A stretch of DNA of 51,652 bases from Halodesulfurarchaeum sp. (lineage in GTDB: Archaea; Halobacteriota; Halobacteria; Halobacteriales; Halobacteriaceae), in NCBI GenBank assembly GCA_042216015.1, contig JBDGUI010000032.1, forward strand, positions 1 to 51,652, written 5' to 3'. The position numbers and the translations under genes were made by a program. Under the pieces are notes generated by a model. That model saw nothing but the letters and a program-made list of their open reading frames with translations, had not been told where the DNA came from and made no database searches. Below are positions 922 to 32,295 of the stretch, piece after piece (position 1 is the stretch's first letter; the number at the start of each line of letters is the position of its first letter).

Positions 922-2490
922 ATGGACGCGCCTGGTCGGCTTCGAGTGACCCGACTCTCGGAGCCGGCACTCGCCGTGCTCGTCTCCGGCATCGCGAGCA
1001 TGGGCCTCGAGATTCTCGCGGGCCGGATGATCGCCCCGGAGTTCGGCAGTTCGATCTACACCTGGGGCAGCATCATCGGGGTCTTTCTCGCCGCACTGAG
1101 TCTCGGGTACGTCAGAGGTGGGAGACGGGCAGCCCGGCACGCCCGGGTCTCATCGCTTCAGACATTGCTCCTGTGGACGACCGTCTACGTGGCCTTTCTC
1201 CTCTTTGCCGGTGAGTTCCTGATTCGTCAGAGTGGGACGTTGCCCATCCCGGCGCGGTACAATTCGCTGGTGCCGGTCACGGTGCTCTTCGGGCCGCCGA
1301 CCTACCTCCTCGGGTTCATCAGTCCCTACGCCGCCGAACTCTCGGGTGCAGAGAGCACCGGGGAGGCTTCCGGCCGGGTCTACGCGCTTGGAACCATCGG
1401 CAGCATCGTGGGGGCCTTCGGGACGACCTACGTGCTGATTCCCTCCCTCTCCATCGAATGGATCGGCCTGTTCTTCGGGGGAATCCTCCTGCTCACGGCA
1501 GCCCGGCTCTCCTGGCCCGCCCCCTCCCACCGGAACGTCCTCCGCCTCGCCGTCGTGGCCCTGCTCCTTGTGGGTGCAGTCCTCGCTCCACAGTTCGGTG
1601 TCGCCCTGTCCGGGGAGACGGTCTATGAGACCCAGTCGGCCTACCAGAACCTCCGGGTCGCAGACCAGGACGGCGTCCGGACCCTCTATCTCGACGGCGT
1701 CTCCCACAGCGCGATGGATCTCTCGGATCTCGACCGGCACGTCTTCACGTACACGCGGTACTTCCATCTCCCCTTCCTCTACACCGAGGACGTCGGGAAT
1801 GTCCTCTTCATCGGCGGGGGCGGATTCACCGGACCGAAGATATTCACGGATCGCTACGACGTCAGCGTCGACGTCGTGGAGATCGATCCCGAGGTGGTCC
1901 GTGTCGCCCGCGAGTACTTCGGCCTCGAAACCGGCCCGAACCTCTCGGTCCACACGACGGACGGGCGGGCCTACCTCCGGGAGACCGAGACGACGTACGA
2001 CGTGATCGTTCTCGACGCCTACCGCCGGGACACGGTCCCATTCCATCTGACGACGACGGAGTTCTTCGCCCTGGCCCGCGCCCGTCTCGACGCGGACGGC
2101 GTGTTGCTCGCGAACGTCATCTCGGCCCCGAGCGGCCCCGGGTCGGCCTTCTTCCGGGCTGAGTACCGGACGATGCAGACGAGTTTCGCCTCGGTCTCGG
2201 CCTTCCGGACCACGGAGCCGGGCGTGGTCCAGAACGTCGAACTGATCGCCACCAGCCAGTCTACCCCCTCGACGGCCGAACTCCGGGAGCGTGCGGCCAA
2301 TCGAGCGGTCGGGTACCGACTCGAGGACGCCCTCGATCGCCGGATCGAATCGGTCCGGACCGGCGACGTGCCCGTCCTCCGGGACGACGACGCCCCCGTC
2401 GATTCGCTGCTCGATCCGATGGTCGGGCAGCGCTACGTGGTCGAATCCGGCTCGGATGGCGCCCCGACCAACCGCTCGGCCGACGCCTGA
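922..2490 (+). CDS. Membrane domain fused to a spermidine synthase-like SAM-dependent transferase
   Basis: N-terminal TM helices (LEILAGRMIAPEFGSSIYTWGSIIG), then VLFIGGGGFT, VEIDPEVV, DGR, DVIVLDAY motifs. Confidence 0.85.
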   Translation: MDAPGRLRVTRLSEPALAVLVSGIASMGLEILAGRMIAPEFGSSIYTWGSIIGVFLAALSLGYVRGGRRAARHARVSSLQTLLLWTTVYVAFLLFAGEFLIRQSGTLPIPARYNSLVPVTVLFGPPTYLLGFISPYAAELSGAESTGEASGRVYALGTIGSIVGAFGTTYVLIPSLSIEWIGLFFGGILLLTAARLSWPAPSHRNVLRLAVVALLLVGAVLAPQFGVALSGETVYETQSAYQNLRVADQDGVRTLYLDGVSHSAMDLSDLDRHVFTYTRYFHLPFLYTEDVGNVLFIGGGGFTGPKIFTDRYDVSVDVVEIDPEVVRVAREYFGLETGPNLSVHTTDGRAYLRETETTYDVIVLDAYRRDTVPFHLTTTEFFALARARLDADGVLLANVISAPSGPGSAFFRAEYRTMQTSFASVSAFRTTEPGVVQNVELIATSQSTPSTAELRERAANRAVGYRLEDALDRRIESVRTGDVPVLRDDDAPVDSLLDPMVGQRYVVESGSDGAPTNRSADA

Positions 2491-2639
2491 CTCGAGGCGG
2501 AACCGTGCTCGAGCTATCGGCGTTCGAACTGGGGAGTCGGATCCGGTACTCGAACTGGACTGAACGAGGGGAGGGGACAGCGTTGTCCGATCGGGGCCAT
2601 CGGCGAGGATTTTTATTCTCACCCATCTACCGATGTGCC

Positions 2640-3914
2640 ATGGACTCGCGCATATCCGGGTTTTACAAGCTCCCGGTCACAGAGCGGCGGGAGCGGATCG
2701 CGGAACTCGCCGATCTCTCAGAAGAGGCAGTCGAGGCGATCGGCGGAACCGGCCTGACGGAGGACCTCGCTGACACCGTCAGCGAGAACGTCATTGGCAC
2801 CCTCGAGTATCCGATCTCGGTGGCGACGAACTTCCAGATAGACGGCGAGGATCGCCTGATTCCGATGGCCATCGAGGAGACGAGCGTCGTGGCCGCGGCC
2901 TCCTATGCCGCACGAATGGCCCGTGCTGGTGGGGGGTTCGAGACCGAGGTCGACGCCCCGCGGATGATCGCCCAGATCCAGGCCGTCGACGTCACCGACC
3001 CGCAGGCCGCCCGCATGCGGATTCTACAGGACAAGGAGCGCCTGATGGAGCTGGCCGACGAGCAGGACCCGACCCTCGTGAAGTTCGGTGGCGGGGCCGA
3101 GGACCTCGCGGTCCGCGTGATCGACACCCCGACCGGCCAGATGGTCGTCACTCACCTCATTGTCAACGTCCAGGATGCCATGGGCGGGAACGCCGTCAAC
3201 ACGATGGCCGAGGCCCTGGCCCCAGAAATCGAGGACCTCGCGGGCGGCGACGTCGAGATGCGCATCCTCTCGAACCTTGCCGACCGCCGTCTCGCACGGG
3301 CGACCTGTACGGTTCCTCCCGAGGAACTCGCCGACGAGGACAGCGAGTTCACGGGGGAAGAAGTCCGGGATCGGATCGTCGACGCCTGGGCGTTCGCCAT
3401 GGGCGATCCGTACCGTGCGGCGACCCACAACAAGGGCATCATGAACGGGATCGACGCGGTCACCACCGCCACGTTCAACGACTGGCGGGCGATGGAGGCC
3501 GGCGCCCACGTCTATGCGTCCCGGGGCGGCTACGACTCGCTCACGAGCTACGAGGTCGACGCCGAGGGCAACCTCGCCTGCACCATCGAACTCCCGGTCC
3601 AGATCGGGACCGTGGGCGGCGCGACGGGCCTCCAGCCGGTGGCTCAGGCCGCAATGGAGATCCTCGACGTGGACTCCGCCCCGGAGATGGCCGGCGTGCT
3701 CGCCTCCGTCGGGCTCGCCCAGAATCTCGCCGCCCTCCGCGCGCTCGTGAGCGAGGGAATCCAGCGGGGACACATGCGGCTGCACGCCCAGAACCTCGCG
3801 ATCCAGGCCGGGGCCGAGGGCGATCAGATCGACCGGGTCACAGAGCGGATGATCGAGGAGGATTCCATCGGTCAGGCCGAAGCCGAGGCGATCCTCGCGG
3901 AACTCGAGGAGTGA
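2640..3914 (+). CDS. mvaA: Hydroxymethylglutaryl-CoA reductase, class II (bacterial/degradative type)
   Basis: MDSRISGFYKL start; ENVIG, EETSVVAAAS, DAMGGNAVN, THNKGIMNGIDAV, GTVGGAT, EGIQRGHMRLHA motifs; TATA-like ttttta ~25 nt upstream. Confidence 0.92.
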   Translation: MDSRISGFYKLPVTERRERIAELADLSEEAVEAIGGTGLTEDLADTVSENVIGTLEYPISVATNFQIDGEDRLIPMAIEETSVVAAASYAARMARAGGGFETEVDAPRMIAQIQAVDVTDPQAARMRILQDKERLMELADEQDPTLVKFGGGAEDLAVRVIDTPTGQMVVTHLIVNVQDAMGGNAVNTMAEALAPEIEDLAGGDVEMRILSNLADRRLARATCTVPPEELADEDSEFTGEEVRDRIVDAWAFAMGDPYRAATHNKGIMNGIDAVTTATFNDWRAMEAGAHVYASRGGYDSLTSYEVDAEGNLACTIELPVQIGTVGGATGLQPVAQAAMEILDVDSAPEMAGVLASVGLAQNLAALRALVSEGIQRGHMRLHAQNLAIQAGAEGDQIDRVTERMIEEDSIGQAEAEAILAELEE

Positions 3915-13861: not shown

Positions 13862-14706
13862 AGCCCCCGGAGCAGGTCGACGTCCCGGACGATGCCGCTC
13901 AGTTCGTCACCTTGCTTCAGTGGCACTTGCTCGATGTCGTTGTCGAGGAGGAGCCCGGCGACCTCGCTTGCAGTCCGACCCCCGGTAACGGTCACGAGGG
14001 AACTGGACATGTACTCCCGGACCGGCTCGTTGGGGAACTCGACGTCCCGCGTGGGGAGATAGCGGTTGCCCACGGCCTTGATCCCCTCCCACATCCACTC
14101 GTCGTCCTGGTTGGCGATGCTCTCGCCGGTGGCGTCCTCGCCCTCGACGACCCTCGCGACGTCGATGATGTCGACCTCGGTGATGATGCCGGTCATCTCG
14201 CCGTCGTCGTCGAGCGCGATCGCATATGGCACGTTCGCGAAGGCGATCTCCCGTTCGGCGACGGGGAGTGGGGTGCCGACGTAGACCGTGTTCACGTCGT
14301 GACTCGCGAGTTCCCCGACCTCGACGTCCCCATTGGCGTCTCCGTCGGCGATGGCGCGCACCACGTCGGTGATGGTGACCATGCCGGTTAGCCCCCCGCC
14401 ATTGACGACCGGAATGCGCCGCTCGCCGGTCTCGACGATGAGTTCGGCCACCTCGTCGAGCGTGGCGTCACTCGAGGTCGTCGGGACGTCCTCCATGAGC
14501 AGGGCCAGCTGGTCCTCGTCCGGCCTGGCGATCAGGCTCTCGCGGGAAACGAGGCCCCGATACTGCTCGCCGTCGTCGGTTTCTTTGACGACCGGAACCG
14601 AGGAAAACGACCGCTCCTGCAGGTACTCGAGGACGTCGTCACGGGTTCCGGGGAGCGAGACCGTGACCACGTCGGCCCGGGGTGTCATCGCGTCGGCAAC
14701 CTTCAT
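13858..14706 (-). CDS. CBS domain protein
   Basis: Repeated CBS motifs (FSSVPVV, RRIPVV, IEQVPL); ATGA overlap with glyS. Confidence 0.88.
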   Translation of the reverse strand: MKVADAMTPRADVVTVSLPGTRDDVLEYLQERSFSSVPVVKETDDGEQYRGLVSRESLIARPDEDQLALLMEDVPTTSSDATLDEVAELIVETGERRIPVVNGGGLTGMVTITDVVRAIADGDANGDVEVGELASHDVNTVYVGTPLPVAEREIAFANVPYAIALDDDGEMTGIITEVDIIDVARVVEGEDATGESIANQDDEWMWEGIKAVGNRYLPTRDVEFPNEPVREYMSSSLVTVTGGRTASEVAGLLLDNDIEQVPLKQGDELSGIVRDVDLLRGL

Positions 14707-14795
14707 GTGAGCCGCTTACAGGATCCTCGCATATGTAGGCTACGACACCGACTGGTGGAAATCTGGCCCGGCAATCGTCGAATTTCGAACCGGTA

Positions 14796-14827
14796 TCTCC
14801 CCTCGGAAACCGTGTCTCCCCTCGGAA
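14796..14827. repeat. 13-bp direct repeat in the divergent CBS/dppA promoter region
   Basis: tctcccctcggaa at 14796-14808 and 14815-14827. Confidence 0.7.
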
Positions 14828-14860
14828 CGATCCCCCGGCGCGAGGCGAAATCTTACACCA

Positions 14861-14870
14861 ATTTTTATAA
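14861..14870 (+). promoter_or_regulatory. TATA box of dppA
   Basis: atttttataa ~27 nt upstream of ATG 14897 (leaderless geometry). Confidence 0.65.
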
Positions 14871-14896
14871 CGCTTCACAATATTGGTCCTGGTGGT

Positions 14897-16729
14897 ATGG
14901 CAAAAAGCCGCAAACTCAACAGGCGCCGATTTCTGGAAGCCACCGGGGCTGCCGCCCTCACCGCCAGCATGGCCGGGTGTGCCGGCGGCGGCGACGGACA
15001 ACAGACCACGACGGAAGCGGGTCCGACCGGGGAATACACGCCCTCCGATACCTACCCCTACGGGGCCAACGAGACGAACGTCGAGGAGGCCAAGGCGGTG
15101 ATGGAGGAGGCCGGGTACGGGCCGGACAACCGGTTCAAACTCGACTGGCTCCAGTACCAGAGCCCGGCCTGGAAGGAGATGGCCAATACGATTCGAGCCC
15201 GGCTCGGGTCCGCGTACATCGACATGAACATCAGCCAGGCCGACTTCGGCGCCCTTCTCAACACGACGAAGAAGGGCGATCACATGGCCTACACGCTGGG
15301 GTGGATCGCGGACTATCCCGCACCGCAGAACTTCCTCCAGCTCATCGATCCCAAAAACACGATCTACGACGCGGAGGGGTACACGCCGAACGGGGCCCGA
15401 CTGTTCTGGTCCAAGGATGCGCTCGGTGACGACCGCATCCGGAAGTACATGACCGCCCAGTTCGACCGGATCCAGAACAATCCCGAGCCGACCGACGAGG
15501 CCCAGCAGATCAGGAACGACGCGGCCGTGAAGATGGAGAAGGCCCTCTGGGATTCGGCTGGCCTGCTGCCGATCTATCACTCGGTCGACCAGCTCTTCTG
15601 GTACGACCGGGTCGATTTCGACCCGCCGGGCGGGATGGGCCCCTCGCGTGCCAAAACGAACATCTCTATCAAGGGTCTCGAGGGCAAATCCACCCTGAAC
15701 GGCATCTCGGTCACCTTCAACGCGCTCGACCCGATCGCATCCGGCAACACCGCGAGCGGAAACAAGGTGATGGACATGTTCGACGCGCCGTTGAACTACC
15801 ACAACGGCACGACGGACGTTCGCAACCTGCTCGTGACGGACTACAGCGTGAGCGAGGACGCCACCGTGTACGAGTTCACGCTCAAGGAGGGGATCCAGTT
15901 CCACGGTGACCACGGCGAGGTCACGGCCGACGACGTGGTCTATTCGTTCCGGCGACTCGTCGAATCGCCGAACTCCACGAACACCTACTTCCCGATCAGC
16001 GTTCTCAACATCGAACGCGAGGAGGACGAGAAGGGCAACGTGAAACCGGGGACGACCGGCGTCGAGAAGACCGGGGAGTACTCCTTCAAGGTCACGCTCC
16101 GAAAGCCGTTCGCATACACCCTCTCGGTGCTCGCGTACTCCGCGTTCTCGGTCGTGCCGGAGGGGATCGTCGGGGATATCCAGGGCTACGAGGGCGAGAT
16201 GACCTGGGAGGAGTTCTCCACGAATCCCGTCGGGTGTGGGCCGTTCGTGTTCGAGACCTGGGAGTCCGGTGTGGGCGGCGAGTTCGCCGCGACGAAATTC
16301 GAGGACTATCACGGGCCGGAATCGGCGGTTGAACGGGTCCACGACGCAATTATGTCCCAGCCCTCGGCCATCTACAACTACTTCATCAACGGGAACGCCG
16401 ACGTCTCGGGCATCCCGACCTCGAAGTACGATCCGGCGAAGATATCGAACGAGCGGCAGAAGGGGAGCCAGACGCTTGCGGACTACGGGCCGATCGGCGA
16501 CGGAAAGACGGTCAACATGTCGACCACCCCGTCGATCAACACCTATTTCGTCGGGTTCAACATGGAGAAGGTTCCAAAGGCCGTTCGCGAGGCGATGGCC
16601 TACGTCATCAATCACGAACAGTTCATCACGAACGTCTTCAAACAGCGGGGGGAATCCGCGTTCCACCTGACGCCACCGCAGGCCTACCCGGGCGGAACGA
16701 GCGCGTACAACGAGTACATCCCCAAGTGA
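14897..16729 (+). CDS. dppA: Peptide/nickel ABC transporter substrate-binding lipoprotein (SBP family 5), Tat-exported, apparently circularly permuted
   Basis: Tat motif NRRRFLE plus lipobox MAGC; family-5 motifs (ALDP, YEFTLKEGIQFHG, VTADDVVYSF, PVGCGPFVF) present but located in the second part of the chain. Confidence 0.9.
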   Translation: MAKSRKLNRRRFLEATGAAALTASMAGCAGGGDGQQTTTEAGPTGEYTPSDTYPYGANETNVEEAKAVMEEAGYGPDNRFKLDWLQYQSPAWKEMANTIRARLGSAYIDMNISQADFGALLNTTKKGDHMAYTLGWIADYPAPQNFLQLIDPKNTIYDAEGYTPNGARLFWSKDALGDDRIRKYMTAQFDRIQNNPEPTDEAQQIRNDAAVKMEKALWDSAGLLPIYHSVDQLFWYDRVDFDPPGGMGPSRAKTNISIKGLEGKSTLNGISVTFNALDPIASGNTASGNKVMDMFDAPLNYHNGTTDVRNLLVTDYSVSEDATVYEFTLKEGIQFHGDHGEVTADDVVYSFRRLVESPNSTNTYFPISVLNIEREEDEKGNVKPGTTGVEKTGEYSFKVTLRKPFAYTLSVLAYSAFSVVPEGIVGDIQGYEGEMTWEEFSTNPVGCGPFVFETWESGVGGEFAATKFEDYHGPESAVERVHDAIMSQPSAIYNYFINGNADVSGIPTSKYDPAKISNERQKGSQTLADYGPIGDGKTVNMSTTPSINTYFVGFNMEKVPKAVREAMAYVINHEQFITNVFKQRGESAFHLTPPQAYPGGTSAYNEYIPK

Positions 16730-17063
16730 GTCGGCTCCGTGGGTGATCCCCGAGTAAATCCTCCGTGGGTGACGGGATCTTCGGCTGATTCGCTCCGGCG
16801 GGACGTTTCATCCACGTCGCCTGCGTAATCTTCTTAACTGGTCCCAAGAAAACACCTGTATTCAATATGCGCCGGCAGGCCAGACCCGCGCCGGACGGCC
16901 GGGCAGGATCCGCCACCCGGGCGGCCCTTTTGAAGGAGGACGCCGATCACGGAGCGGAGCGGCCAGGCAATTCACCGGGTCGCATCGCCGATTTCCCCCC
17001 TCGAACGGGCAGCAATCGGTGGGGGGCTGAGAGCAGTGGAAGGGGACTATTTCGTGACCGACG

Positions 17064-18155
17064 ATGAATCGGCTGGTGTATCTCCTCAAACGACTGGCAC
17101 TTGGGGTCCCGGTGATGCTGTTCGGGCTCACCATGGCCTTCATGGTCATGTATCTGGGTCCGATCGATCCGGTGTTGACCATTCTGGGCCGGGACGCCGA
17201 ACCGATGGCGGCCCACCAATTGCGCATCCAGCTGGGGATCATCTACCCGGACGGAACGCCGGTTCCGCTGTGGGACCAGTACCGGATGGTGCTCACCGAT
17301 CTCATCACGTTCAACTTCGGCCAATCCTGGACGATCCAGCGGGGCACTCCGGTCGGTGAACTCATCGTGGCCCGGATGCCCGCGACCGTCTGGATGGGGT
17401 TCTGGTCGGTCGCCATCGCGCTTCTCCTCGGGATTCCCATCGGGCTGTTCGCCGGGCTCCGGGCGAACACCTGGTCTGATTACTTCTCCTCCGGGTTCGG
17501 AATCATCTGGCGGGCCATGCCGAACTTCTGGCTCGCCGTGATGATCGCCGGCTTGCTGTCCTCGGGGGGCGCGCTTGACTTCTATCGGGGATGGTGGATC
17601 ACGACCGACGTGATCGGCACGCCGGACGAACTGTATCACCTCTTCACGGGGCTCCACGTGTTCGAGGGGATTCCGCTCCTCGAGGTGGTCTGGATCCCCG
17701 TTCCGAACGTGGGCTCGATATTGACCGCCTTCAAGTGGATCCTTCCGGCCGCCCTGGTTCTCGGCTCGGCGTCGATGGGGAACGAGATTCGAATCGGCCG
17801 AACGGCGGTTCTCGAGAGCATCCATTCGAAGTACGTGGAAACCGCCCGGGCCAAGGGCCTCTCGGAGCGACGGATCATCGCGAAGCACGTGGGTCGAAAC
17901 GCGGTAGTCCCGCTCCTGCCCGTCATCATGGGCGAGTTCTACCTGTTGATCGGCGGGTCGGTCCTCGTGGAGCGGGTGTTCTCGATCAACGGGCTTGGAA
18001 ACCTGTTCTTCCGGGCGGTTCTGGGACCTGACATTCCGATGGTGATGGCCCTCGTGTTCTTCTTCATCATCTTCCAGATCCTGTTCAACATCACCCAGGA
18101 CCTGTTGTACACCTTCATCGATCCACGCATCACGCTGGAGGGTGCTGAGCGGTGA
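17064..18155 (+). CDS. dppB: Peptide ABC transporter permease
   Basis: NFGQSW, RMPATV, PNFWLA, YVETARAKGLSERRIIAKH, VERVFSINGLG. Confidence 0.92.
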   Translation: MNRLVYLLKRLALGVPVMLFGLTMAFMVMYLGPIDPVLTILGRDAEPMAAHQLRIQLGIIYPDGTPVPLWDQYRMVLTDLITFNFGQSWTIQRGTPVGELIVARMPATVWMGFWSVAIALLLGIPIGLFAGLRANTWSDYFSSGFGIIWRAMPNFWLAVMIAGLLSSGGALDFYRGWWITTDVIGTPDELYHLFTGLHVFEGIPLLEVVWIPVPNVGSILTAFKWILPAALVLGSASMGNEIRIGRTAVLESIHSKYVETARAKGLSERRIIAKHVGRNAVVPLLPVIMGEFYLLIGGSVLVERVFSINGLGNLFFRAVLGPDIPMVMALVFFFIIFQILFNITQDLLYTFIDPRITLEGAER

Positions 18156-19708
18156 CTCCCATGTCAGAGGACACCATTTCCACGACGCGTGCGGAGCTGG
18201 TCGAGAATGAAAAGACCCCGCTTCGCGAGCGGATCGCCGAAAACCCGGAACCGGCCATGCGATGGAGCGCGGTGATGGCGGTTCTCGTGCTCGTCCAGAT
18301 CTTCACGTTCGCCGAAATCGCGGTGACGATGCTCGATGCACTGGTCGTTGGCCTCACCGGAGTGCTGGACGTCATCGTCGGCCTCGTCTCACCCGCGGCC
18401 GCCGGGGCGATCGTCGACCTCCAGACGGCGACCACCGCTTTTCTCGGTGGCATTCACGAATTTCTCGAACAGCTCCCCACCCTCCTCAGTCGGGACGTCA
18501 TCCCGAACCAGGGCTATCGAATGGGGCCAAATGGATCGTGGGTCGGGACCTTCCTGGGTCTTCAGCCGGCGGTCGCCTGGGCCATTCGATTCGTACTGCT
18601 CGTCGGCTATTCGATCTTCTTCGCGTTCTGGGTCTTCAAGGGATGGCTCGTGTTCCGAGAGCACTACCGACACGAGGAGTGGACTCCAACGGACGACATC
18701 GTTCGCCGCCTTCGAGGCCACCGCTGGGGCCAGTTCGGAATCGTCGTCCTCGTCCTGTTCTTGATGATGGGGGTCTTTGGTCCGGCACTCGGCCCGACGA
18801 CGGTCGAGCAGAACATCCAGCAACCCTACAGTTACGACATCAAGTACTTCTCCGAGGAAACCGGCCAGGTCGAAACGGTCCCGGTCGGGAAGGCGAATTT
18901 CCTGTCGAAATCCAAGGGGTCGGTGGGACAGAACGTCGCCCCGATGACCTACGACGATTTCGGCCGGTTCCACCCGTTTGGAACCCTCCCCAACGGGCGT
19001 GATCTCTTCACGTTCATGATGGGCGGGGCCCGCATCTCGCTCATCGTCTCCGGAATGGCGATCGGGATCGCCTCGCTCATCGCAGCGGTGCTCTCGATGA
19101 TCTCAGCGTACTACACGGGGTGGATCGACCTCACGATCCTGACCACCGCGGAGGGGGTCATGTCGATCCCCCGGTTGCTCCTGCTCATCATGGTGAGCGT
19201 GGTCTTTGCCAACCACTGGCTCGGTGGAGTCCTCGACGGTGGATTCCTCCTCGCGCTCGTGTTCGCGTTCACCACCTGGCCGTTCCTGTGGCGGGCCGTC
19301 CGTGGCCCCGCACTGCAGGTCTCAGAGGAGGGCTGGATCAAGGCCGCAAAGAGCTTCGGCCAGCGGCCCAGGACGATCATGCGCAAGCACATGCTGCCCT
19401 ACATCGTCGGCTACCTGATGGTGTATGCCTCCATGTCGACGGGCGGGATCATCATCGGACTCGCCGCACTCTCCTTCCTCGGGAACGGGCTGGGTATCAC
19501 CCCACCGACGCCGGCCTGGGGACGCGCCGTCTCGCTCGGACAACCCTATGTCTCCGGGCCGTCCTGGCACATCTCCTTCATCCCGGGGGTGATGATCGTC
19601 TTCCTCGTGACCGGACTGAACGCGTTCGGTGACGGCATCCGGGACGCGATCGATCCCGAGACGGAGGGTGGAGACGTCGAGGAGGCGACGATGGGAGGTG
19701 GTGGCTGA
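18152..19708 (+). CDS. dppC: Peptide ABC transporter permease with N-terminal membrane extension
   Basis: HPFGTLPNGRDLF, GARISL, AAKSFG, NAFGDGIRDAIDP; start GTG 18152 or ATG 18161. Confidence 0.9.
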   Translation: MTPMSEDTISTTRAELVENEKTPLRERIAENPEPAMRWSAVMAVLVLVQIFTFAEIAVTMLDALVVGLTGVLDVIVGLVSPAAAGAIVDLQTATTAFLGGIHEFLEQLPTLLSRDVIPNQGYRMGPNGSWVGTFLGLQPAVAWAIRFVLLVGYSIFFAFWVFKGWLVFREHYRHEEWTPTDDIVRRLRGHRWGQFGIVVLVLFLMMGVFGPALGPTTVEQNIQQPYSYDIKYFSEETGQVETVPVGKANFLSKSKGSVGQNVAPMTYDDFGRFHPFGTLPNGRDLFTFMMGGARISLIVSGMAIGIASLIAAVLSMISAYYTGWIDLTILTTAEGVMSIPRLLLLIMVSVVFANHWLGGVLDGGFLLALVFAFTTWPFLWRAVRGPALQVSEEGWIKAAKSFGQRPRTIMRKHMLPYIVGYLMVYASMSTGGIIIGLAALSFLGNGLGITPPTPAWGRAVSLGQPYVSGPSWHISFIPGVMIVFLVTGLNAFGDGIRDAIDPETEGGDVEEATMGGGG

Positions 19709-20778
19709 TGGCTGACACCACGGCGGAAACGATCCTCTCGGTCCGGAATCTCCAGACGGTGTTCTACACCGATCGCGAGACGATACGGGCCGTCGACGAC
19801 ATCACGTTCGACGTGAAACGTGGCGAAACCGTCGGTCTCGTCGGCGAATCGGGATCCGGCAAGAGCGTCACCGCCCGATCGATCATGGGAATGATCGAAT
19901 CCCCTGGCCGGATCCTGTCCGGTTCCTCGATCCGATTCGAGGGTCGTGAACTCACTGACCTGTCGAACGCGGAGTACCGGAAGGTACGGGGCAGCGGCAT
20001 CGGGATGGTCTTCCAGGACCCGCGGAACTCGTTGAATCCGGTCTATACCATCGGGAATCAAATCAAGGAGGCCCTGAAGGTCAACCGGGGAATCACGGGA
20101 AAGGCGGCGACCGAGGAGGCGATCACCCTGCTCGAGGCCGTCGGCATTCCGGACGCGGAGCGCCGGCTCGGGGAGTACCCCCACGAGTTCTCCGGCGGGA
20201 TGAACCAGCGGGCGGTCATCGCGATGGTGCTCGCCTGCGAACCGGAGTTCCTGATCGTCGACGAGCCGACGACGGCCCTGGACGTGACCATCCAGGCCCA
20301 GATCCTCGACCTGCTCAAGGACCTCCAGGAGGAGCGAAACCTCTCGATCCTCTTCATCACCCACGACATGGGCGTGATCGCCGATATCGCGGACCGAGTG
20401 AACGTCATGTACGCCGGACAGATCGTCGAGACGGCCCCCGTCGAACCGCTCTTTGCCCAGCCGAAACATCCCTACACCGAGGCGCTCATCGAGACCATCC
20501 CCGGCGAGAAGACCCGGAAACAGGGCCTCCGAACCATCGAGGGCGAAGTCCCGACGCCCAACGAGCCGGCGTCGTACTGTCGGTTCGCCCCCCGGTGTGA
20601 GTACGCCTTCGAGGCCTGTGAGTCACATCCACCGGCCCACGTCGAGGCGGGCGAAACGGCGGATCACACCGCGGCCTGTCTGCTCTATCCCGAGGACCTC
20701 GACGAAGCGGCCCGCCTCGAGTATCATCAACAGTTACAGGCCGCCGGCGACGCCGAGTCCGGAGGTACGAACCAATGA
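19708..20778 (+). CDS. dppD: Peptide ABC transporter ATP-binding protein
   Basis: GESGSGKS, FSGGMNQR, DEPTTALD, oligo_HPY C-terminus with Cys. Confidence 0.94.
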   Translation: MADTTAETILSVRNLQTVFYTDRETIRAVDDITFDVKRGETVGLVGESGSGKSVTARSIMGMIESPGRILSGSSIRFEGRELTDLSNAEYRKVRGSGIGMVFQDPRNSLNPVYTIGNQIKEALKVNRGITGKAATEEAITLLEAVGIPDAERRLGEYPHEFSGGMNQRAVIAMVLACEPEFLIVDEPTTALDVTIQAQILDLLKDLQEERNLSILFITHDMGVIADIADRVNVMYAGQIVETAPVEPLFAQPKHPYTEALIETIPGEKTRKQGLRTIEGEVPTPNEPASYCRFAPRCEYAFEACESHPPAHVEAGETADHTAACLLYPEDLDEAARLEYHQQLQAAGDAESGGTNQ

Positions 20779-22103
20779 GCGAGTCGGATCTCCGTCCCGA
20801 CCGGACGGTTCGACCGGGCGAGCCACTCATCGAGGTCTCCGGCCTGAAAAAGCACTACGGCGGCGACGGAGTCTTCGCCGGACCGCCGGTCAAGGCCCTC
20901 GACGGCGTCAGCTTTACCATCAAGCGGGGGGAGACCCTGGGGCTCGTCGGCGAGTCCGGCTGTGGGAAGAGCACGCTCGGCCGCACGATGATTCGGCTCG
21001 AACGGGCGACCGAGGGCACGGTGGAGTTCGACGGGACCGACATCACCACCCTCTCCGGTCGCGACCTCCATCGGTGGCGCAAAAACGCCCAGATGGTCTT
21101 CCAGGACCCCGAGTCGAGCCTGGACGACCGCATGACGGTGGGGGAAATCGTTCGAGAACCACTCGACGCCCACGACTGGGGAAGCGACCGCGACCGGCGG
21201 AGGAGGGTCCTCGACCTTCTCGAGGATGTCGGACTTCAGGAGGAGCACTACTACCGCTATCCCACCCAGTTCTCCGGCGGGCAGCGCCAGCGGATCGGCA
21301 TCGCCCGCGCGCTGGCACTGGAGCCCGAGTTCATCGTCCTCGACGAGCCGGTGAGCGCCCTCGACGTGAGCGTTCAGGCGAAGATCATCAGCCTCCTCGA
21401 GCGACTCCAGGACGAGTTCGACCTGACCTACCTCTTCATCGCCCACGACCTCTCCGTGGTCCGGCACATCACGGACCGCGTGGCGGTGATGTATCTCGGG
21501 AAGATCATGGAACTCGGGGAGACCGAGGAACTGTTCCAGAACCCATCGAACCCCTACACCCGATCGTTGCTCTCGGCCATCCCGGTCCCGGATCCGGCCG
21601 CCTCGGATCACCGAATCACCCTCCCGGGATCGCCACCGAGTCCCCGAGATCCACCCGCTGGCTGCCAGTTCTCGACTCGCTGTCCCGCGAAGATCCGACC
21701 GGACGGGTACGACCTCTCCGAGGACGGCTGGGACGCGATCGAGCGGTTCCGGGAGATCGTCCGCGAACGGTCCCGCATCAGCCTGGGCGTCCCCGACCTC
21801 GTCAAACGGCAGGTGGGGCTGTTCTCGCGGTACGACGACATCGACCACACGGTGGATGACCTCTTCGAGGACGTCGACGTCACTCAGGAGACCGCGGAGA
21901 TCATCGAGACGGCCGCAGCGCGAGTCCGGGCGGGGTATCCCGGGGAGGCACGCGCCCATCTCGATTCGGCGTTCAATAGCGTGTGTGACCGGGAACGGCC
22001 CGAATTTCACGATATCAGCGCCTCGGGCAGACAGAGTTACTGTCACCGCCACAGCCCGGACCACGAGGACGTCGGACCGGTGCTCGAACGCCGGACCCAA
22101 TGA
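20775..22103 (+). CDS. dppF: Peptide ABC transporter ATP-binding protein
   Basis: GESGCGKS, FSGGQRQR, DEPVSALD, NPYT, GCQFSTRCP...C...CH with a helical insertion. Confidence 0.94.
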   Translation: MSESDLRPDRTVRPGEPLIEVSGLKKHYGGDGVFAGPPVKALDGVSFTIKRGETLGLVGESGCGKSTLGRTMIRLERATEGTVEFDGTDITTLSGRDLHRWRKNAQMVFQDPESSLDDRMTVGEIVREPLDAHDWGSDRDRRRRVLDLLEDVGLQEEHYYRYPTQFSGGQRQRIGIARALALEPEFIVLDEPVSALDVSVQAKIISLLERLQDEFDLTYLFIAHDLSVVRHITDRVAVMYLGKIMELGETEELFQNPSNPYTRSLLSAIPVPDPAASDHRITLPGSPPSPRDPPAGCQFSTRCPAKIRPDGYDLSEDGWDAIERFREIVRERSRISLGVPDLVKRQVGLFSRYDDIDHTVDDLFEDVDVTQETAEIIETAAARVRAGYPGEARAHLDSAFNSVCDRERPEFHDISASGRQSYCHRHSPDHEDVGPVLERRTQ

Positions 22104-29792: not shown

Positions 29793-30572
29793 TCACCGCA
29801 TATTCCACCGGGACTCGAGGACGGTATGGGACTCCAGGGCCCGTTCGAGTTGCTCCACGCCCCGTGAAAGCGTCCTGGCGATCGACCGTTCGTAGGAGAT
29901 TCGGCGGGGGGATCCCGAGATGTCCATCGCCCCGAGGACGTCTCCATCGGAACCGTGAACCGGGACCGCGACTGCCTTGAGGTTCTCCCAGGCCTCCTGC
30001 TCGTTGATCGCATACCCCCGCTTTCTGACCAGTGCCAGTTCCTCCTCCAGCGTCTCTCTGTCAGTGATGGTGAATTCGGTCCGTTGGGGCAATCCCCACT
30101 GATCGATTATCTCCTCGACCCGCTTCTCGTCCATCTCGGCGAGCATCGCCTTTCCGGCGGCCGTGCTATGGAGGTAGAAATACTGTCCCCGCTGGAATCC
30201 CTCGAGGGTTCCCGTATCGAGACTGTCGAAGAGCGTGATCGCCCGCCCGTTCTCCAGCACGGAGAAGTTCACGACCTCGCTCGTCCGATCGGCTATCTCG
30301 TAGGTCTTCTCTCTGGCCAGCATGAACTCCGTGTCACGGCGCTTGGCCCGCGTCCCCAGGTGATAGAGCTTCAACCCCAACCGGTAGCGACCATCTCGCT
30401 TGATGACCAGCCCGTTCTCCCGCAGTGTCTGGAGGTGTTTGTGGGTCGTGCTGATCGCCATCCCGAGTTCCTCGGCCAACGCGCTGACTGTGGGCCCGTT
30501 CCCGTCCGAGACGGCCTCGAGGACCCGCAAGGACGTGTTCGTGGTCTCGTGTGTTCGGCCCGTGCTCCTCAT
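29793..30572 (-). CDS. IclR-family transcriptional regulator
   Basis: HTH (STTHKHLQTL, YRLG), HSTAAGKAMLA, TEFTITD, RGYAINEQE. Confidence 0.92.
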   Translation of the reverse strand: MRSTGRTHETTNTSLRVLEAVSDGNGPTVSALAEELGMAISTTHKHLQTLRENGLVIKRDGRYRLGLKLYHLGTRAKRRDTEFMLAREKTYEIADRTSEVVNFSVLENGRAITLFDSLDTGTLEGFQRGQYFYLHSTAAGKAMLAEMDEKRVEEIIDQWGLPQRTEFTITDRETLEEELALVRKRGYAINEQEAWENLKAVAVPVHGSDGDVLGAMDISGSPRRISYERSIARTLSRGVEQLERALESHTVLESRWNMR

Positions 30573-31292
30573 CGTTTCGCCATCTGTTTCACGTTATAGA
30601 AAAAACTGACCATCAGAGCGCGAACCCCTTCGGAATTTAATATTGCGGAATACAGTTTAACTTATAAAGAACGCGCCAGATGAGCGAATAGTCCCTCGGA
30701 AGGGTCTGCCGGAAAACATATTCGCTCAACTGTTGCGGTCCAGCGACCGGACCCCTCATGGCATTCTTGAAGCCACAGCCCGTTTGCCACATTTTCGTAT
30801 ATCGAAATGACGTTTATCGTTGCCAGGACCTTTTCGATGGGGCTCCGGATCGTGTTATTTCCAAAGGAGTGATGCCGGCTCACCTCTCGCGGCGAAAGGC
30901 CTATGCCATGAAATCTGGCCCAGGGTCGCTTCTATCATCGTATACGTGATGTGTGAAGATCTCCCGGGGAATCTGGCCCATCAGCAGCCAGCGCGTTCTC
31001 CCTGTTCGGCCCCCCGGTTCAAATGCTAGCCGTTCATATATAAGTTAAACTCAATAGCGCTATATCAAATTTTTCTCCCGCAGCCACCATCCGGGTCCTC
31101 GCAAATGCGTCCAGATCGTCAATTATCGTGCGATAGAACTCCTCTCACAGTAGTTTTGCGTTCACTCGACGGACGTCTCGGTGGCCTTCGTCTCCTGATA
31201 GGGTGGTCGAAAGCCAATCGAAGAAGGGGTCAATGACCGAGTTTCCTGACAAACGCCGCAAAACCAATACTGTTGAAGAACTGTCAGTCGCC

Positions 31293-31979
31293 TCAGGCCT
31301 GCGTCGTCGCTTCGGGTTCCTCGAGAATCGACTCGAGGAGCTTCGACTGGGCGGCGGCGAGGTGTTCGGTGAAGGTAGAAGTCGTGATGCCGAGCTCCGC
31401 TGCGACCTGTCCGGCATTTGCGCCCTTCGGGTGCTCGAAGTAGCCCATCTCGTGGGCGACTTCGAGGACCTCGCGTTGCCGATCGGTCAGGACGCCGCGA
31501 TCGACGAAGACCAGATCCTCACTCCCCTCGTCCTCGCGGGAACTCACCAATCGCTGGACGTCGACGTCGTCATAGGATTCACGCAACGCCGTGATGGCCC
31601 CTCGGAGATCGTCGATCGAGGGGGCGTGAAACACGATCGAGAGGTCCCCCGCCTCGGCCTGGATGTCCACGATCGGGCAGTCGTATCCCTCGACGAGTTC
31701 GCAGGCGCAATCGTGGCCGAAATTCCGCTGAAATCGGTAGACAGACTGCTGTCCGTAGGAGAAGACCGGCTCGAAGGTCCCATCCGGGAGCTCCACGCTC
31801 GCGTCCGTGGCGAACTCCTCGGTGACCCGTCCCGTCTCCGGGTCGACCCGCTTCGAGACGTTGAAGCACTCCACGCCGTCGTCCGAGACCTCGGCGATCG
31901 GACAGTTCTCGAGGTCTGCGAGTCGGACCTTTGCCCTGATCCCCTCGGATGCCGTGGCCTCGCTCGCGAGCGAACTCAT
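31293..31979 (-). CDS. HTH-10 (Bat-type) transcriptional regulator, DmsR-like
   Basis: GIRAKV...CPIA...CACE; C-terminal LTDRQREVLEVAHEMGYFEHPKGANA...TFTEHL. Confidence 0.88.
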   Translation of the reverse strand: MSSLASEATASEGIRAKVRLADLENCPIAEVSDDGVECFNVSKRVDPETGRVTEEFATDASVELPDGTFEPVFSYGQQSVYRFQRNFGHDCACELVEGYDCPIVDIQAEAGDLSIVFHAPSIDDLRGAITALRESYDDVDVQRLVSSREDEGSEDLVFVDRGVLTDRQREVLEVAHEMGYFEHPKGANAGQVAAELGITTSTFTEHLAAAQSKLLESILEEPEATTQA

Positions 31980-32295
31980 CGCCCTTTCCCCGTGGTCGGT
32001 CCACTCCCCGGTCGGGGGGCCTCTATGGGGCGGCCGGACGATGGGACGATCATTCCGTTCATTACATACATATTTGGTGGTATCGTTTCCAACACCCTAA
32101 AATCCACTCCCCTTCCCAATTATTGAAAATGCCAGTTGCGGGCGTTTCAGCCGATTTCACCTCCTTTTTCTTACGAATGCGTGCCATTTTTGAATTTTTA
32201 GTGTACCCCAAATATGCGGGAGACGATCCAGTCAGATGAGGTTGGCCTTGCTGGGGTCGGAAGGGTTTACCCAGCACCTCCCCTGAATCCGCACC

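Follow-up and report, generated by a model that had tools for sequence, protein, structure and literature searches.

The substrate-binding protein gene and its parts

The window analyzed here is a 51,652 nucleotide stretch of Halodesulfurarchaeum sp. (assembly GCA_042216015.1, contig JBDGUI010000032.1), on the forward strand of which an open reading frame (ORF), 14897..16729, encodes a family-5 substrate-binding lipoprotein (610 amino acids plus stop) that is most likely circularly permuted, with an arrangement denoted P1. All parts described below lie on the forward strand. The protein starts with a twin-arginine (Tat) signal (RRRFL) and a lipobox that ends at Cys28 (MAGC; 14897..14980), both recognizable from sequence and conservation, with R9, R10, L13, T16, G27 and C28 each conserved in at least 90% of 31 P1 proteins. 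The match to the Pfam TAT_signal model scores 14.8 bits, under the 22.7 cut-off; the twin arginines, the hydrophobic stretch and the lipobox cysteine are those of a haloarchaeal Tat-exported lipoprotein, so that lipidation of Cys28 is predicted. A Thr/Gly-rich tether (residues 29-50; 14981..15046), variable in both length and sequence among the relatives, would connect the lipid-modified cysteine to the fold.

The rest of the chain consists of two blocks joined by a connector. Block B (residues 51-255; 15047..15661) corresponds, according to phmmer, BLASTP and hidden Markov model (HMM) comparisons, to the C-terminal approximately 200 residues of canonical proteins (profile positions h406-604; residues 328-417 of Escherichia coli DppA in the aligned part). 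The connector ISIKGLEGKS (15662..15691) links the former C-terminus with the former N-terminus of the mature protein and contains no remnant of a signal peptide. Block A (residues 263-608; 15683..16720) matches, by the same three methods and by structural alignment, the N-terminal approximately 345 residues of canonical mature proteins (h60-404; DppA 20-315). The family motifs follow this order: the first one after the signal and tether is YPYGANE...AKAVMEEAGY, followed by GWIADYP and then LLPIYH...WYDRVDF, and only from residue 265 (nucleotide 15689) does the chain run through TLNG...LDPIAS, FTLKEGIQFHG, VVPEGIVGD, PVGCGPF and VREAMAY...HLTPPQAYPGG to its end at ...AYNEYIPK, which is the point where canonical proteins run on into YPYG. 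Thus, the terminus of the P1 chain, ...PGGTSAYNEYIPK, occupies the same fold position as its start. The motifs and coordinates quoted in the earlier note on this stretch are all accurate, including TLNG from 15689, SIKGLEGKS at 15665-15691, gaatacacgccc from 15032 and gagtacatcccc from 16712. The aspartate of GWIADYP, which is invariant in the 31 P1 proteins (D139), aligns in the phmmer comparison with Asp408 of E. coli DppA, a residue that, along with Arg355, we take to be a clamp of the dipeptide termini.

Evidence for the rotated order

The homology of the window protein with Pfam SBP_bac_5 (PF00496) is not in doubt (196.8 bits against a cut-off of 32.4), and the match is split into two stretches, the best of which aligns residues 308-606 with positions 2-260 of the 368-position profile. 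In a phmmer search against all Protein Data Bank (PDB) chains, residues 281-597 match residues 20-315 of 1dpp and residues 62-148 match its residues 328-417, that is, in swapped order (E-value 2.5e-23); for Yersinia pestis OppA (2z23), the best stretch aligns residues 45-150 with 325-430. Comparison with a canonical haloarchaeal relative (P0091, 613 aa) using BLASTP yields the same picture, with residues 53-255 matching 411-607 (51% identity) and residues 270-608 matching 71-407 (43% identity). The earlier note had predicted two high-scoring segments in swapped order in such alignments, and these were obtained with both the canonical haloarchaeal relative and E. coli DppA. In an HMM built from 24 canonical relatives, residues 51-255 align with h406-604 and residues 263-608 with h60-404, such that the canonical mature profile is covered once, completely and without overlap, in rotated order, and only seven residues (ISIKGLE) separate the two blocks and bridge the old termini.

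A colinear alignment, which would speak against the permutation, was looked for and not found with any canonical protein in the phmmer search against PDB or the BLASTP comparison with P0091, and among the solved chains matched by phmmer, Foldseek and VIA-align, none is colinear with the whole protein, all matches being either swapped stretches or block A only. The four comparisons agree, and since each part of the parent profile is represented once by the two blocks, rotated and with the old termini linked, the arrangement corresponds to the definition of a circular permutation. Our best explanation, with a probability of about 0.93, is that the ORF encodes the binding lipoprotein of a Dpp/Opp-type importer, in which the family-5 (cluster C) fold is present in a naturally permuted form; given that its homology is secure and its chain order departs from that of the profile, the protein is best classified, by sequence, as a permuted member of SBP_bac_5. 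The proposal that the gene encodes a genuinely permuted lipoprotein of the DppA/OppA type is thus borne out by sequence and profile comparisons as well as by the conservation, selection and contig data presented below.

Predicted structure

An AlphaFold2 model obtained with the alignment of the 31 P1 proteins has a mean predicted local distance difference test score (pLDDT) of 81.2 and a predicted template modelling score (pTM) of 0.81. Residues 1-44, which comprise the signal and most of the tether, score below 50 and the loop 152-167 is disordered as well; the connector is modelled with pLDDT values of 92 (residues 251-260) and 96 (residues 261-270). Foldseek searches with the full model retrieved only family-5 binding proteins (242-304 aligned columns; template modelling score 0.30-0.36 on the query length), and VIA-align superimposed the segment from residue 256/265 to residue 609/610 of the model on residues 1 to approximately 335 of OppA/DppA/MppA-type chains (Z 22-24; 290-319 residues). 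The three-dimensional equivalence of block B to its canonical counterpart is suggested by sequence homology along with the full-length model. We infer that the fold, presumably with the three domains and two lobes of the family, and the binding cleft are unchanged relative to the canonical relatives, so that only the point of tether entry and the order of synthesis would differ.

Conservation and selection

Classification of the best 120 database homologues listed, performed with BLAST, yielded 80 full-length and 8 partial P1 proteins, 25 canonical ones, 5 proteins of a second permuted arrangement (P2, described below), one partial P2 and one other partial sequence. The named sources of P1 proteins span eight genera, namely Halodesulfurarchaeum, Halorhabdus, Haloferax, Halomarina, Halonotius, Halapricum, Halobacterium and Halosimplex, and the source records call these proteins simply "ABC transporter substrate-binding protein". 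The 31 P1 proteins selected for alignment are colinear from end to end, with a mean column identity of 61%. Among 301 sampled genomes of the class, 22, including that of the window (G000), encode P1 as a colinear single open frame without stops (59-100% identity), several of them being one-contig chromosomes, and full-span P1 matches to a 140-residue query that spans the connector came from the same 22 genomes. All 11 P1 loci that were fetched are classed as P1 by HMM.

The ratio of nonsynonymous to synonymous substitutions (dN/dS), estimated with the NG86 method at a dS near saturation, is 0.12 for the window gene versus L006, 0.115 for L010 versus L011 and 0.24-0.37 for the other nine computable pairs with the window, with the L016 pair yielding no dS. 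Contigs assembled separately from two sequencing runs span positions 14700-16611 and 15105-17100, covering both junctions with no differences; both runs may come from the source sample, and accordingly this result excludes a binning join and is not independent support. The gene at 14897..16729 is real, old and under purifying selection.

The importer operon

As claimed previously, the operon is otherwise intact, with dppBCDF-like genes following the binding-protein gene on the same strand: a DppB/OppB-like permease (17064..18155; BPD_transp_1, 115.8 bits), a DppC/OppC-like permease with a long N-terminal extension (18152..19708; OppC_N at residues 178-221 and BPD_transp_1 at 313-504), a DppD/OppD-like ATPase (19708..20778; ABC_tran plus oligo_HPY) and a DppF/OppF-like ATPase with a C-terminal tail (20775..22103; ABC_tran plus oligo_HPY, the latter ending at residue 306 of 442). 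The extension of the DppC-like permease comprises about 175 residues before OppC_N, and the tail of the DppF-like ATPase approximately 135 residues after oligo_HPY. A DppB orthologue (70-89% identity) is located directly downstream of the permuted gene in all 11 fetched P1 loci. Thus, the window gene is accompanied by a PepT-type importer set (two permeases and two ATPases with oligo_HPY tails), and its product would serve as the functional binding lipoprotein of an ABC importer of the Dpp/Opp type (peptide/nickel family). Scores against the NCBIfam equivalogs of DppA, OppA, NikA and GsiB are in every case far under the cut-off (for example, 93.5 versus 1005 for DppA_dipep), indicating that the protein is a member of the family and not an equivalog of any named transporter.

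On the opposite strand, upstream of the permuted gene, are genes for a protein with four CBS domains and a class II tRNA synthetase. The divergent intergenic region contains a tandem 19-nucleotide direct repeat with 84% identical copies (GAACCGGTATCTCCCCTCG / GAAACCGTGTCTCCCCTCG; 14787-14824), approximately 75-110 nucleotides upstream of the start codon of the binding-protein gene, which may be a candidate regulator-binding site. Right after the stop codon, a perfect 12-nucleotide direct repeat, CTCCGTGGGTGA, is present in two copies 26 nucleotides apart (16735-16772), within an unusually long (335 nucleotides) spacer that precedes the DppB-like gene. Rfam models produced no matches in the window at the gathering threshold. 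The G+C content of positions 30001-32000 is 0.586, compared with 0.62-0.71 elsewhere in the window.

Three permuted arrangements in the haloarchaeal subfamily

The earlier note had suggested a genome survey for further permuted copies, and such copies were found. Classification by HMM of 270 collected proteins assigned 79 to P1, 66 to the canonical order, 8 to P2 and 4 to a third arrangement, P3, with 113 fragments or more distant sequences left unclassed. The break points are h404/406 for P1, near h170-182 for P2 (window residues approximately 375-383) and near h526-531 for P3 (window residues approximately 176-180). The P2 and P3 permutants share the fold family and the kind of rewiring with P1 and differ from it in these break points, and linkers of 0-13 residues connect their old termini. 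Full-span matches to the connector query identify a permuted form in 50 of the 301 sampled genomes, whereas canonical genes give half-matches only: 22 genomes carry P1, 26 carry P3 (27 loci, one of which is cut by a contig end), two (G078 and G243) carry P2, and that of the window contains both P1 and P2. A DppB-like gene is found downstream in all three P2 loci and in 24 of the 27 P3 loci, the exceptions being two contig ends and one fusion behind a region annotated as a kinase.

The P2 paralogue in the genome of the window (contig C48, 6531-8351, minus strand; 1474-3381, minus strand, in the fetched locus L002) is a protein of 635 aa with its own Tat signal and lipobox and its own DppB-like gene downstream; other P2 carriers are Halobacterium hubeiense (WP_059057849) and a metagenome-assembled genome of Haloglomus sp. 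The P3 fusion (locus L040, G198:C1:2519800-2524000; P0151/P0272; Halapricum salinum record WP_079979476) is a protein of 965-975 aa in which a P3-type binding protein comes after an N-terminal region of approximately 400 residues, labelled a protein kinase domain by one source. The fetched stretch of L040 contains no DppB-like gene downstream of the fusion, which may represent a sensor derived from a permuted binding protein. Among the distant relatives, P0237 (770 aa) contains the N-terminal part (h68-290) twice, and P0218 (585 aa) has h358-513 ahead of h71-287, which could point to yet another permutation, beyond the haloarchaeal subfamily.

The P2 site falls within a loop that accommodates insertions of up to approximately 40 residues in some P1 proteins (alignment columns 437-475), and the P3 site lies after the disordered loop 152-167 of the AlphaFold2 model and before the helix 179-193. 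Structural tolerance at a few loops would be the simplest explanation of the recurrence.

Number of permutation events

For phylogenetic analysis, all sequences were rotated to the canonical order first. Three trees were built: a FastTree tree of 108 rows (66 canonical, 8 P2, 4 P3 and 30 of the 79 P1 sequences picked for diversity), an IQ-TREE tree of 59 rows (LG+C20, "quick" mode; 35 canonical and 12 P1 sequences, picked after the first tree, along with all P2 and P3) and a FastTree tree of 147 rows to which the genome loci were added. In all three, P1 forms a single clade nested among canonical sequences (support 99-100, as SH-aLRT values), and a P2 group that consists of P0054, P0057 and P0068 plus the locus L045 is placed inside the P1 clade with support of 100. 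The trees imply 5 changes for P2, 3-4 for P3 and 9 for all labels, the minimum possible number being 3. Second-order events are apparent as well: in addition to the P2 group within the P1 clade, a P2 protein and a canonical-order protein (P2_P0152 and C_P0140) fall in or next to the main P3 clade, implying either that P3 arose more than once there or that a permuted gene was re-permuted to the canonical order.

The approximately unbiased (AU) test, with groups defined by arrangement and tested after the trees had been seen, rejects a single clade for all 8 P2 proteins (log-likelihood difference 707.9, p = 5e-47), for the 5 P2 proteins outside the P1 clade (320.3, p = 7e-45) and for the 4 P3 proteins (281.8, p = 1e-4). 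Nearest neighbours identified segment by segment match the trees for the P0054 trio (P1 in four of four segments), P0168 (canonical P0171 in three of four) and P0152 (the P3/P0140 group in three of four). Conservatively, we count one origin of P1, at least three of P2 and at least two of P3. The haloarchaeal subfamily of Dpp/Opp-type binding proteins is thus probably a hot spot of repeated circular permutation, with three break loops, approximately nine changes that include second-order events, and representation in about one sixth of the genomes.

Alternative explanations

The swapped order could be an artefact of assembly or binning, or a chimeric join, in a metagenome-derived genome; indeed, the genome of the window is a 51-contig draft that is 86.6% complete, and the only runs that contain the stretch may be its own source. 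Nevertheless, 21 further sampled genomes encode this order in one open frame, the 80 full-length proteins among the best 120 homologues share it, and the per-run contigs cross both junctions unchanged, so that an artefact can be practically dismissed. It is also very improbable, albeit less so, that the protein is real and does not serve transport, being instead a decaying relic or a component recruited for sensing or chemotaxis. Such a role could be suspected from the lack of an equivalent of DppA Arg355 and from the P3-type relative that is fused behind the source-named kinase region, without a DppB gene downstream, and shows that the subfamily can be recruited to signalling; however, dN/dS of 0.12-0.37, the absence of stops in 22 genomes, the DppB neighbour in all 11 fetched loci, the full dppBCDF set in the window and the retained Tat signal and lipobox all speak against this reading. 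Several further observations weigh against the gene being an old, functional permutant. No RNA run was listed among those that contain the stretch. There is no P1 match at E <= 1e-20 in G004 and G010, two congeneric genomes that are 99% complete, which implies that the gene is dispensable or patchily inherited, and a third genome (G020) encodes a 79% identical P1 orthologue, so that the distribution within the genus is patchy. A tandem-fused intermediate was not found, the longer homologous proteins being two unrelated multidomain ones with 22-24% identity, which is weak evidence. Structural superposition reached block A only (all the aligners used are sequential), and block B folded alone, with 12 sequences, yielded a poor model (pLDDT 44.9, pTM 0.37), a result consistent with block B not being an autonomous domain. 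Finally, the equivalent of Arg355 falls in an alignment gap of the window protein (phmmer against PDB), and hence the ligand need not be a dipeptide.

With respect to the number of events, each arrangement might have arisen only once, if gene conversion or recombination among paralogous genes merely made P2 and P3 look as though they had several origins. There are several paralogues per genome, the rows of the 59-row tree were picked after the first tree had been seen, and one pair of origins is insecure: in block A2, P2_P0125 is nearly equidistant from P2_P0092 (67%) and canonical P0124 (66%), and the segment-wise neighbours do not settle P0125 versus P0092/P0120. However, the AU tests reject single clades for both P2 and P3, the neighbours of the P0054 trio, P0168 and P0152 agree across segments, and at the P0054 junction a Gly-rich spacer is still flanked by motifs of the P1 type, the C-terminal one before it and the N-terminal one after it. 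Recombination as the sole source of the pattern thus appears unlikely, although it deserves more credit than either of the explanations discussed above, and we favor repeated permutation.

Origin of the permutation and the tether

The organization of the P1 protein can be described as a path along the canonical fold. After the Tat signal, lipobox Cys28 and a tether of approximately 22 residues, the chain begins at the canonical YPYG point (near residue 326 of E. coli DppA), reaches the old C-terminus, crosses the connector of approximately 10 residues into the old mature N-terminus and ends where it began. P1 probably arose once, long ago, within the canonical haloarchaeal subfamily and has been retained under purifying selection, and two more loops of this subfamily appear to have become break points as well, in several independent events. 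As the likeliest route, tandem copies would have fused in frame and then been trimmed at either end, the signal peptide being retained. For the derivation of P2 from P1, the P0054 junction, judging by its sequence motifs, is a putative trace of such an event via a fused tandem copy.

The resemblance of GEYTPS near the start of the chain and NEYIPK at its end had been taken as an echo of duplication and deletion, an interpretation weaker than the central one. The two peptides represent the same few profile positions at both chain ends, as a trimmed duplicated gene would leave, and are compatible with duplication and trimming. At the DNA level, the 12-nucleotide echo (9 of 12 positions identical) is no better than chance: it is unreported by a repeat search of the 2.5 kb region, which contains 8 other two-copy direct repeats of 12-19 nucleotides with 84-100% identity, and the peptide similarity is limited to close relatives of the window protein and does not extend over the P1 clade as a whole. 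The nucleotide echo was accordingly rejected as evidence of duplication. The overlap of residues at the P2 termini was likewise set aside, given that it could equally be two hairpin strands.

The moved tether enters the fold at the equivalent of residue 326 or so, which is presumably in domain III, in the other lobe, according to the DppA domain limits that we assume. An effect on docking of this entry at approximately residue 326 instead of residue 1, via a flexible tether of approximately 22 residues, is possible.

Comparison with known proteins

Solved cluster C or family-5 proteins include DppA (PDB 1DPP and 1DPE; 8Z1Y/8Z1Z chain F), OppA (1OLA/3TCF), MppA (3O9P), GbpA (3M8U) and 8UPI. The window protein resembles E. 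coli DppA in its homology over both blocks, the fold of block A and the aspartate aligned with Asp408, and its partner, as for DppA, is an importer with two permeases and two ATPases with oligo_HPY tails. It differs in that the equivalent of DppA 328-417 precedes the equivalent of 20-315, with the termini joined by approximately 10 residues, and in being a Tat-exported lipoprotein, whereas E. coli DppA is free in the periplasm. The canonical haloarchaeal relatives, such as P0091 (Haloferax larsenii; 43-51% identity per block), P0104 and P0118 (Halogranum gelatinilyticum), share with P1 the Tat signal, the lipobox and a Thr/Asp/Gly-rich tether as well as the motifs LDP, VPEGIVGD, HLTPP, YPYG, GWIADYP and GGMG.SR.K. 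The order is signal-A-B in these relatives and signal-B-connector-A in the window protein.

The classical natural circular permutations, for which a model of duplication and trimming has been proposed, are those of swaposin/saposin, lectins and transaldolases, and they are mostly single events in soluble proteins. In contrast, here the N-terminal export signal and lipid anchor are retained each time, and the permutation recurs at three loops. Engineered permutants and domain-insertion variants of periplasmic binding proteins, made as biosensors, indicate that these folds tolerate new termini (PMC6335823); unlike P1, which is natural and recurrent, these are laboratory-made, belong to other classes of binding proteins and are not lipoproteins. 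A passage of another article mentions circular permutation only as a general evolutionary trick (PMC8694067). A full-text literature search, in which subscription journals are not covered, returned no description of natural permutation of such binding proteins, only engineered biosensors, generic mentions and unrelated papers. Thus, the fold, the function and circular permutation as such are known, and a natural series of this kind, recurring in a binding protein with a lipid anchor, seems to be undescribed.

Implications

In the P1 proteins, the usual last third of the chain has become the first in an otherwise ordinary haloarchaeal peptide-type importer, a rewiring that profile-based annotation overlooks because it reports an ordinary "ABC transporter substrate-binding protein" with split domain matches. 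To our knowledge, well-resolved families with several independent natural circular permutations are few, and this one provides dated, nested examples on which the origin of permutations by duplication and trimming versus fission and fusion can be tested. The membrane tether enters the same binding protein at three or four points, which bears on the way in which a tethered protein and its permease meet, and the break loops mark places, validated by nature, where cluster C binding proteins accept new termini or insertions, which could be useful for biosensor engineers. Should selection, and not just tolerance, underlie the recurrence, its cause would likely be the entry point of the tether or the order of folding before Tat export in the high-salt cytoplasm, and nature would have supplied, in this family, an experiment on both questions.

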